Shown: positions 12,301-15,300 of the stretch, piece by piece | Position numbering within the stretch: position 1 is the first letter of the stretch | How the letters are laid out: the number at the start of each line of letters is the position of its first letter | From: Sphyrna mokarran | Lineage: Eukaryota | Direction of reading: 5' to 3' | Assembly (NCBI GenBank): GCA_024679065.1 | Contig: JAGIQG010000018.1 | Coordinates: 44,640,001-44,704,000, forward strand | Length of the DNA stretch: 64,000 nt | Notes under the pieces: model-generated | The model's input: only the letters and a program-made list of their open reading frames with translations | What the model was told of the DNA's origin: nothing | The model's database searches: none | Position numbers and translations under genes: made by a program

Positions 12301-15300
12301 CCAGTCACATCCAGAAAAGGGAGGAAGGCAAAAGAAAGACTGGCTTTGTTTGGCTGAACACTCATTCCTGTTCATTATTGCTTGAAAGGATATTCTGGAC
12401 AAGCTGTAGCCCCTTCCCATTTCTTTAAAAACCGTAAAAAGGAAAAGGCATTTCCTATCGTGAACAGCGCTACATGGTTTTTTTTACAGGATGTCAGTCA
12501 TTTATATATCAAACATATTTTAAGACTTGCTTTAGAGTGAAAGGTTCCAATGCTCTGGCACATCTGGTGTTAATGGCATTATCTGTAAGGTTGAAATTTT
12601 CTTTGCAATTGGAATGATCACAATTACAAAACGTCTTCTGAAGAGATTTGCAGTTTATGTTATGAAAATAACAGTCCAAAATTAATAGATTGAATTAATA
12701 GAAGGCTGTTAAAACCTGACATCAACTCCATAACTGCGCTACAGTTTGGGGTCACCTGTCAAGCCCAGAATTGGGCTACATTATGGAAGTTGCTGTTAAC
12801 TTAAATAGACAAATTTCTCATGCAAACATTCAGGTCACATGTTCACATGTACAGATGCAATTTTAACGATCTTCAGTCTCAAGCGCTTACCCGTTATTTG
12901 TAGAGAATCTGGAACTGGCCAGTCTTCTGCAAAAAAAGTCACGTATATAAAACTCCCACAAAGAGGTAACCCTCACTGCTGTCTAGATTTCTTTTTTTAA
13001 AAATAAAGCGACTATTGTTTGTCCAAAAACAATAAAAACACAGGAATCAATTCATTAGCACTTGTTTAGTCATTGAAACCAACTCCTGCCAATTCCATGG
13101 TTAGAAATCAAATTTGCAACTCACTAACAACCTTTTGCTACTTACTGGGCTGAGGCTCGAAGTCCTTCAAGTTGATTTCATATTCATCTTCATTTATGTA
13201 TTGGTGCCGACCCATCATCACAATGGCAAATTTGAACTTGAAAAGAGAATTAATTTTTAATATTAGAAGATTCCAAACAGGAGAAGTGAACACCAAGAGC
13301 AGATTGACTGCAGAAACCAGTCCTTTGCATTTGTTGCTCTTGTTCAATATCAGTTTCTGGGCCTCAAAGAGAAACTTTAATTGTGAGGCAACTATAATGG
13401 GCATTTACAGACTTCTCAGCTTATTTAAGGAAACAGCAAAACCCAAAAAAGATATCCAAAATTAGATGCTTCTTACCTTTTCAAATTCCTTCTCTTGAAC
13501 TTCCAGCATGGCCTGGATTCGTTTCATAATTTCCCTAAAGGGTTCACTCTAAAATTTTAGAGAACATATGAACTCTGGTCAAACTCTGAACAAAAGAAAC
13601 ATTCTTGAAGCAATCTGTGCAATTTTTCTGCCATTCAAAGCTCTGCATTAGATGACAGCCAGACATTTTAAATGCTCTGCTAAGAGCACAAAATTAAGAC
13701 CTTACCTGGCATATCCGCAACAAGAATGGAATTCCAAAAGTGCCAAAAACTTCTTTGTGAAAATGTGCCACTGGGATCAATAACTCATTCTCTTTGTCCA
13801 GATCAACTTGATCTAATGGGACCTCCTGAAAAATATCCAGATAAATGTGAGTGCAAAGCGGAAACTTGTTGATTTAAAAAAAAATTTACAGCCACAGAAG
13901 TTTATCAAATATGCATCATACCTCTATCCTGAATGTACGGCTTGTTGCTGGAGATAAACATTCTAACAGCTCATCTTCTTGATGTACTCCAATTATTTTG
14001 TAGCTTACAATTTCCAGTAGCCTGAAAGCAAAAATACATTCATTGTTTAAAACATTAAAATTGTTTAAATCTAATCCATTGTTCAGTATACAAAGATGGT
14101 TGCTCAGGGTCAAAAAACCCACCATGACTAACATCCCAGTCATTTGGAAATCTGGCAATCCACCTTTTCAAAGGCACTGTTTACAGGTACTGTGACAGAA
14201 ATGCTATTCTACCCTGCTGCCATCAAACTTCTGAATGGACCTAATATATGTTAAACTGATCTTTTGCTACACGCTATGATCAGAACTCTATATTCTGCAT
14301 CCTCTCCTTTCCTTCTCCCCTATGTACTCTGAACAGTATATTTTGTCTGTATAGCACACAAGAAACAGTACTTTATCACTGTATCAATAATAAATCAAAA
14401 TCATTGTCACTCGTAGAACCAGCATGAACTAGGTAGCAATTTAAACTAACTTAAAAATACAAAACACTTCCTCAAAAGATCTATGTTATTTTGCATCCAA
14501 GCATTGCCTTCCTCTGGTAATGACTTTAAAAATTATAAATATTAATTATTGCTAAAGGTGCCACTACTCTCCCAACTTGCACCTAATTTACCTAAACACA
14601 ATAGCTGTGTTGAGATAAGATTGAGAAAGTAATTACTTTTATACTAAAACAAGTGTGGGCAGCGCATACAATTTAAAAAAAATAAGAACAGGTTATGTTA
14701 ATTATTAGCTCAAAAAAGACTGTGGATCCCAACACAATACAGTTTGGGTTTTTGCTGACAAGGCTAAGTGGATGACCAAAGTTTGAACAGTTCCATTTGA
14801 ATGCCTTCCAAGGTCACATACTGAAAAAAGCTCATACACCACAATTTGGCTCCAGCGCCTGAATTAACAATTGTTATCATAAAGCACGGTTACGTGAAAC
14901 AACACACCACATACGGTCTTACCTTAGCTTACTGGAACCTTTTTCTGACAATTCCACAGCTTTCTTACATTCTTCCAGTAAGTCACGCACACAGCCATGT
15001 TTATCTGGATATAGTGTTATCTCCTATAGTACAATAAATTGTTCAAATTGGTATTTCGTTGAATGAGCTACGTACAATTTCATCCAAGTGGTATCTTGTA
15101 GCAAAATATTACCAACAGGTGTAATGTGTTTTGAGTTAGTTTCCTAGTAGATCAAATGTTCATTACTTAATTACTTAAGTGAAAATTAAATCAGTTAACT
15201 AATACTACAAATTTTCTAAGTTTCTAATGCAAAAAATAATTAACTATATCACATGCTCAAATTTCTAGGTAATGTGTTCCCATGACCTGAGCATTTTGAT

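Follow-up and report, generated by a model that had tools for sequence, protein, structure and literature searches.

Neural microexons that depend on SRRM3/4 are short and frame-preserving and are predicted to remodel protein surfaces; their usual size limit is 27 nt and a wider limit lies at ~51 nt, and a UGC motif stands shortly upstream of the acceptor. RBFOX-enhanced cassette exons and microexons, a class that spans the vertebrates, are likewise short and in frame, insert into surface loops and are followed by GCAUG together with secondary motifs; GCTTG, GAATG and GTTTG belong to the secondary RBFOX motifs, which act from the downstream intron to favour inclusion (10.1101/840272). On the protein side the closest described system is human USP7 (PDB 5JTV, 5JTJ and 2YLM), in which UBL4–5 are followed by a C-terminal activating tail (residues 1083–1102; PMC6335408). 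The tail peptide alone binds the catalytic domain, only when the latter is ubiquitin-loaded, and tail-less USP7 has an activity like that of the bare catalytic domain; the Ubl45 core binds weakly and in several modes and affects KM, and in the accessible text of that study NMR gave no single specific interface between the Ubl45 core and the catalytic domain (PMC6335408). Full activity requires Ubl45, which also influences the affinity for ubiquitin (PMC6335408, PMC7419626). As far as their accessible text goes, PMC12566277, PMC11922642 and PMC12501124 name no C-terminal USP7 isoform, and the only human isoform named in the first of these is the Ser18-containing USP7S.

The window—the whole 64,000-nt stretch of DNA analysed—holds exons 2–31 of USP7 on the minus strand (30 exons and 29 GT–AG introns, mapped with a shark protein), and the numbering of exons 30 and 31 is consistent if one first exon is assumed to lie beyond the window. 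The encoded protein is a C19 peptidase with a TRAF domain and UBL1–5, a full-length USP7 ortholog with the activating tail, and the shark and ray proteins share the human layout of UBL4–5 and C-terminal tail. Identity over exons 2–31 is 99.5% to shark USP7 and 93.4% to rodent USP7; across ~1,076 positions there are 5 differences to each of three sharks, 16–18 to two rays and 57–79 to bony vertebrates, from which the window is shark DNA. A preliminary description of this DNA had proposed a 36-nt, in-frame and stop-free exon bounded by AG and GT between exons 30 and 31, and the present analysis confirms it at that place (Table 1). The intron between the two exons is in phase 1, the segment is a multiple of 3 in length and open in the host frame, its AG and GT sites are of usable strength, and inclusion adds 12 residues, the last of which is Gly, whereas skipping leaves Ser at the junction. 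We hold that the segment is very probably a true exon and likely a minor microexon restricted to elasmobranchs. Our full reading, which we consider probable with some reserve, is that of a regulated UBL5-loop insert that spares self-activation, encoded by a cassette exon that a ray annotation includes and the main RNA contigs skip.

Table 1. Features at the last USP7 junction, in window coordinates
Feature	Position	Strand	Remarks
USP7 exon 30, 91 nt	13146..13236	-	Ends in A, phase-1 donor CCA/GTAAGT; joints to 13477 and 9329 in runs X1, X4 and X3
Upstream intron, 219 nt	12927..13145	-	T7 pyrimidine tract; acceptor AG at 12928-12927
Candidate 36-nt frame-preserving cassette exon, net 12 residues	12891..12926	-	TGCAG/ ... 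CGG/GTAAGC; ray ortholog; one contig each of X1 and X4 begins at 12926
Second AG, 3 bases inside the exon (tandem acceptor)	12924..12925	-	In-frame 33-nt version possible; weak, score 2.98
Cassette exon donor GTAAGC	12885..12890	-	Score 9.99; use implied by ray model
Putative RBFOX-type motif cluster	12819..12884	-	GCTTG +7, GAATG +60, GTTTG +64, TGCATG +67 (from donor)
In-frame stop upon donor read-through	12835..12837	-	30 new residues; last UBL5 strand and tail lost
Downstream intron, 3,561 nt	9330..12890	-	Low-depth cover over part or most of its length in RNA-like runs
Coding part of last exon 31	9223..9329	-	Final UBL5 strand and activating tail

Splice sites were scored with weight matrices built from the gene's own 29 junctions, a small set on which ranks are rough. 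Only 4 of the 29 constitutive donors score higher than the cassette donor and 25 score lower, while the acceptor (7.38) is about median, with 12 of 29 constitutive acceptors higher; the earlier claim of two strong sites thus stands for the donor and was overstated for the acceptor. That inclusion restores the Gly at the junction is also true, and it is uninformative, given that G occupies position −1 in 18 of the 29 donors here, as expected from the consensus. A pseudo-exon scan of 49,480 intron bases, which collected in-frame open candidates of 9–150 nt at a low score threshold, ranked the 36-nt exon first of 106. Three candidates of any frame match or beat both of its site scores, the 36-nt exon being the sole in-frame one.

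Other candidates from the introns of this gene may be recorded alongside. A 17-nt out-of-frame candidate in the same intron (window 11524-11508, minus strand) has two sites that both outscore those of the 36-nt exon (9.27 and 10.25), and contigs of X1 and X4 run across it without a break; a 143-nt out-of-frame candidate lies at 56906-56764. The next-best in-frame microexon candidates, in other USP7 introns on the minus strand, are found at 36547-36539 (9 nt), 30349-30338 (12 nt) and 24242-24213 (30 nt). A further tandem acceptor lies 6 nt into an exon at 18015-18010 (minus strand), and its use would drop Tyr-Arg, as in listed isoforms of whale shark and medaka.

Several other origins for the segment were considered and set aside. 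The exon region is single-copy, with one match in its own genome in a search that skips very common words, which rules out an exonized repeat at that search's sensitivity; exon 30 likewise has one match in the genome. A tandem duplicate of exon 30 was rejected because 92% of 3,503 control windows equal the likeness that the segment shows to the end of that exon. The hallmark of a recursive-splicing exon is an AG/GT junction that regenerates the donor; the present exon starts with AAG, and no GT donor is regenerated. Nor is it a poison exon of the NMD type: the cassette is open, and no junction follows the stop met on read-through. The local RNA fold does not stand out (z −0.34), no Rfam family was found in the window, and a metagenome scan with a 19-nt exon pattern returned 9 loci, all of them chance matches of 19–25 nt without flanking similarity. 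Elsewhere in the window, a short high-copy repeat at about 11810-11870 in the downstream intron shows a peak in depth and numerous loose ends in each of the four runs, and 2817-3571 contains overlapping open frames, which we take to resemble a decayed LINE retroelement.

The TGCATG that the preliminary description had noted ~70 nt downstream is present at 12824-12819. The hexamer occurs 21 times in the introns of the gene, which gives a chance of ~4% of meeting it within 100 nt, and the first 100 nt downstream also hold GCTTG, GAATG and GTTTG. By a post hoc count, 1.4% of intron windows hold at least four primary or secondary RBFOX 5-mers per 100 nt. The TGCATG is spanned by contigs of X4 and X18. 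RBFOX control of the exon is plausible from its sequence surroundings. As regards SRRM3/4-dependent microexons, 36 nt exceeds the 27-nt limit and falls only within the limit of ~51 nt; over the 54 nt upstream, TGC occurs once, inside the acceptor TGCAG itself.

The preliminary description had also suggested looking for the insert in other chondrichthyans and had offered lineage restriction as one reading, which is supported as far as seen. A protein search with the exon-30 frame, compared at protein level, recovered Mobula birostris USP7 isoform X1 (XP_072125057.1, P0049; an NCBI model), which carries the insert at the same junction, with the same position, length and phase and with 11 of 12 residues identical; the single difference is Ile in the window and Leu in the ray. 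Altogether 416 proteins were compared, of which 172 span the junction in its vertebrate form, the rest being invertebrate, distant or partial; the set is a sample, with 15 of 407 main-cluster members among the matches listed. Among these matches the insert occurs in the ray isoform only (1 of 172, and 1 of 6 chondrichthyan proteins). Five further chondrichthyan entries (three shark, one ray and one chimaera) are skip forms with Ser, a divergent primate entry also has Ser, and the remaining 165, from bony vertebrates and cyclostomes and including 20 lamprey or hagfish isoforms, have Gly and no insert, all among the matches listed. Human USP7 thus differs from the shark in having Gly at the skip junction, and the exon is confined to elasmobranchs as far as seen, whereas the RBFOX-enhanced class spans the vertebrates. 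The presence of Gly in both cyclostomes and bony vertebrates suggests that cartilaginous fishes acquired the terminal A of exon 30 as a derived state. The skip forms of sharks and rays bear isoform labels X2 to X5. Isoform numbering follows length, and these labels hint at longer, unseen isoforms.

We also considered whether the segment is tolerated splicing noise, that is, a rarely included cryptic exon with good sites and an open frame in an indel-tolerant loop, without a selected function. Under a model without selection, the probability of keeping at least 11 of 12 residues is 0.0016, 0.027, 0.089 and 0.26 at nucleotide identities of 0.70, 0.80, 0.85 and 0.90, and it falls to 0.0004–0.046 (identity 0.70–0.85) when AG and GT must also be kept. 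The neutral shark–ray identity of ~0.8 is a rough guess, drawn from intron contigs of close relatives, in which ~7% of sites differ, and from the roughly threefold greater distance of rays at protein level; at 0.90 the conservation would be unremarkable. The shared sites, length and residues of the ray, at identities of 0.70–0.85, speak against noise, as do the position of the exon as the best candidate in 49.5 kb of introns and the motif cluster downstream. In its favour are the single insert-bearing protein among the six chondrichthyan ones listed, a loop that tolerates changes in length, and the nature of the ray entry, which is an automatic gene model. This model has an extra, rare-looking 6-residue insert in the catalytic domain (residues 472-477), for which no counterpart was found in the window, and may be a collection of rare events. 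Taking into account as well that the skip form dominates and that no inclusion joint was listed (below), we regard noise as unlikely.

Two side observations arose from the same protein set. A 79-residue record labelled Vibrio parahaemolyticus (P0387) falls in a cluster with vertebrate USP7 C-termini and is probably contamination, and P0162 and P0414-P0416 represent a divergent USP7 copy with an altered loop and tail, one member of which is labelled as the newt Pleurodeles.

Of 20 available runs of assembled contigs, none recorded as RNA and 15 guessed to be RNA, four were aligned (X1, X4, X3 and X18). They carry no tissue labels; X1, X4 and X3 are taken as RNA-like, and X18 behaves as DNA. The skip joint 13146-9329 is present in all three RNA-like runs, at depths of 303, 128 and 48 in X1, X4 and X3 (three organisms and three studies), as is the constitutive joint 13477-13236. 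The inclusion joints 13146-12926 and 12891-9329, proposed earlier as the junctions to look for, were not seen in the contigs of the four runs, which drop rare forms. The same contig alignments gave no instance of use of the cassette donor, and the RNA-like contigs none of the tandem acceptor.

What the contigs do contain is a break at the predicted acceptor. In X1 one contig, aligned over its full record, covers 12729-12926 (depth 5.86), and in X4 one covers 11555-12926 (depth 14.6); the two, from two organisms and two studies, start exactly at that acceptor and read on past the donor into the intron. Depth in the bin 12996-13141 is 0 in the three RNA-like runs as against 7.65 in the DNA-like X18, which runs across. 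In X1 the single contig explains all depth in its bin, and X4 shows a small unexplained excess. A further X4 contig starts at the exon-30 acceptor with three additional letters common to the spliced and the unspliced path, which converge there, and by the same logic the starts at 12926 lead us to infer use of that acceptor. The contig starts thus hint that the acceptor is used in RNA, a pattern that counts as a weak hint, the joining contig itself being unseen. Relative to the skip form, the acceptor-starting contigs amount to 2–4% (X1) and 11% (X4) of depth, a poor measure of level. No weight attaches to the uncovered stretch 12120-13141 of X3 or to the gap that every run leaves over most of exon 31.

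These contigs had escaped the earlier reader; as mature RNA they would specify a protein without the tail. One possibility is that they are splicing intermediates, another that they represent a read-through isoform that stops at 12837-12835 without the last UBL5 strand and the tail. On the latter account the acceptor would mainly define an alternative terminal exon or a retained-intron isoform, in which exon 30 is spliced to 12926 without subsequent use of the donor, and the product is either a tail-less, poorly active USP7 or an RNA held in the nucleus or degraded, in effect an off-switch. Such an outcome agrees with the passage of the two contigs through the donor, with several AATAAA or ATTAAA sites in the downstream intron and with the behaviour of tail-less USP7 described above. 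Intron cover goes on up to the acceptor of the last exon, though, and X4 retains intron 29 at a depth of 12.2, similar to that of its acceptor-starting contig, as would be expected of incompletely spliced RNA; the ray model uses the donor, itself a strong site. A search for the read-through protein end gave no match at E<=10, weak evidence in that it covered cluster representatives only and isoforms hide inside 90% clusters. We judge this off-switch account very unlikely to be the main role of the acceptor.

In the protein the insert falls between the equivalents of human P1067 and G1068, ~15 residues before the activating tail, with the last UBL5 strand in between. The loop that receives it is the one length-variable loop of UBL5: it spans 6–19 residues across 54 animal USP7s, in which neighbouring segments vary by ~2 residues at most, and invertebrates vary its length while keeping the tail. 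In vertebrates it has 11 residues in 171 of 172 proteins among the matches listed, and its length there may be constrained. The native human loop seems ordered in the crystal 2YLM (529 of 530 residues modelled) and so is not simply floppy. An AlphaFold model of the ray isoform, built on a 66-sequence alignment (mean pLDDT 86), matches solved USP7 structures and keeps the UBL5 fold; the insert lies in a low-confidence loop (pLDDT 51–61, as against 89 on both sides), the last strand is still formed (1091–1095) and the tail is left unplaced. Since the last strand comes after the insert and is preserved in the model, the tail tether would keep its length. The 12 residues contain no TRAF-type P/A/ExxS, KxxxK or PxxP motif.

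According to the preliminary description, the insert could tune USP7 self-activation, and this proposal is weakened. It would act through a changed fold-back of UBL4–5 and the tail on the catalytic domain, and it draws on the place of the insert inside Ubl45, with its role in full activity and ubiquitin affinity (PMC6335408, PMC7419626), and on the near-uniform loop length of vertebrates. The insert, though, lies in a freely varying loop, and the modelled fold, last strand and tether make tuning the weaker reading; the variable loops of invertebrates that keep the tail and the lack of a single specific interface in the accessible NMR account (PMC6335408) point the same way, and we think direct tuning highly improbable. 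From the model, self-activation through the last UBL5 strand and the tail is likely left largely intact by inclusion. Some effect of the insert on activity may exist, the Ubl45 core being known to affect KM (PMC6335408).

Under the preferred reading of a regulated, self-activation-sparing loop insert, the exon would have arisen in cartilaginous fishes, by the shark–ray split at the latest, from unique intron sequence. Its median-strength acceptor would keep inclusion minor by default, and RBFOX proteins bound 60–70 nt downstream would raise inclusion in brain, heart or muscle. The long downstream intron would be removed slowly, so that acceptor-spliced, donor-unspliced RNAs would accumulate as intermediates. 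Inclusion would add 12 residues to the variable UBL5 surface loop and leave tail-driven self-activation largely intact, and the Trp/Pro-rich added loop would alter the protein-contact surface of UBL5 more than catalysis. Among the points against this explanation are that no inclusion joint was listed in the four runs, that inclusion is drawn from one automatic gene model and that the five other chondrichthyan proteins among the matches listed appear as skip forms. The exon is already present in automatic annotation, that of the ray; judged from titles and the opening lines of abstracts, no printed description was found in the literature on USP7 microexons and splicing or on alternative exons of cartilaginous fishes. 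It may already figure in splicing databases or in supplementary exon catalogues.

A bolder combination, which we consider a long shot, would be a three-way splicing switch at the last USP7 junction of sharks and rays, in which the skipped form is the standard enzyme, inclusion under RBFOX yields a tissue isoform whose UBL5 has a new 12-residue loop, and use of the acceptor without the donor leads to a tail-less, activation-dead USP7. If true, it would be a natural splicing control of USP7's own allosteric activator, and if the tail-less read-through form proves mature, splicing would switch off USP7 self-activation.

USP7, the gene behind Hao-Fountain syndrome and a target for drugs, has a C-terminus that hardly varies among vertebrates. 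A natural insert retained in sharks and rays marks out a UBL5 position that tolerates additions and could accommodate a tag or sensor; the insert also provides a convenient way to ask whether the loop affects activation or partner binding. Most likely the exon provides a modest, lineage-restricted isoform, and its birth, in a gene under strong constraint, is one that can be dated.
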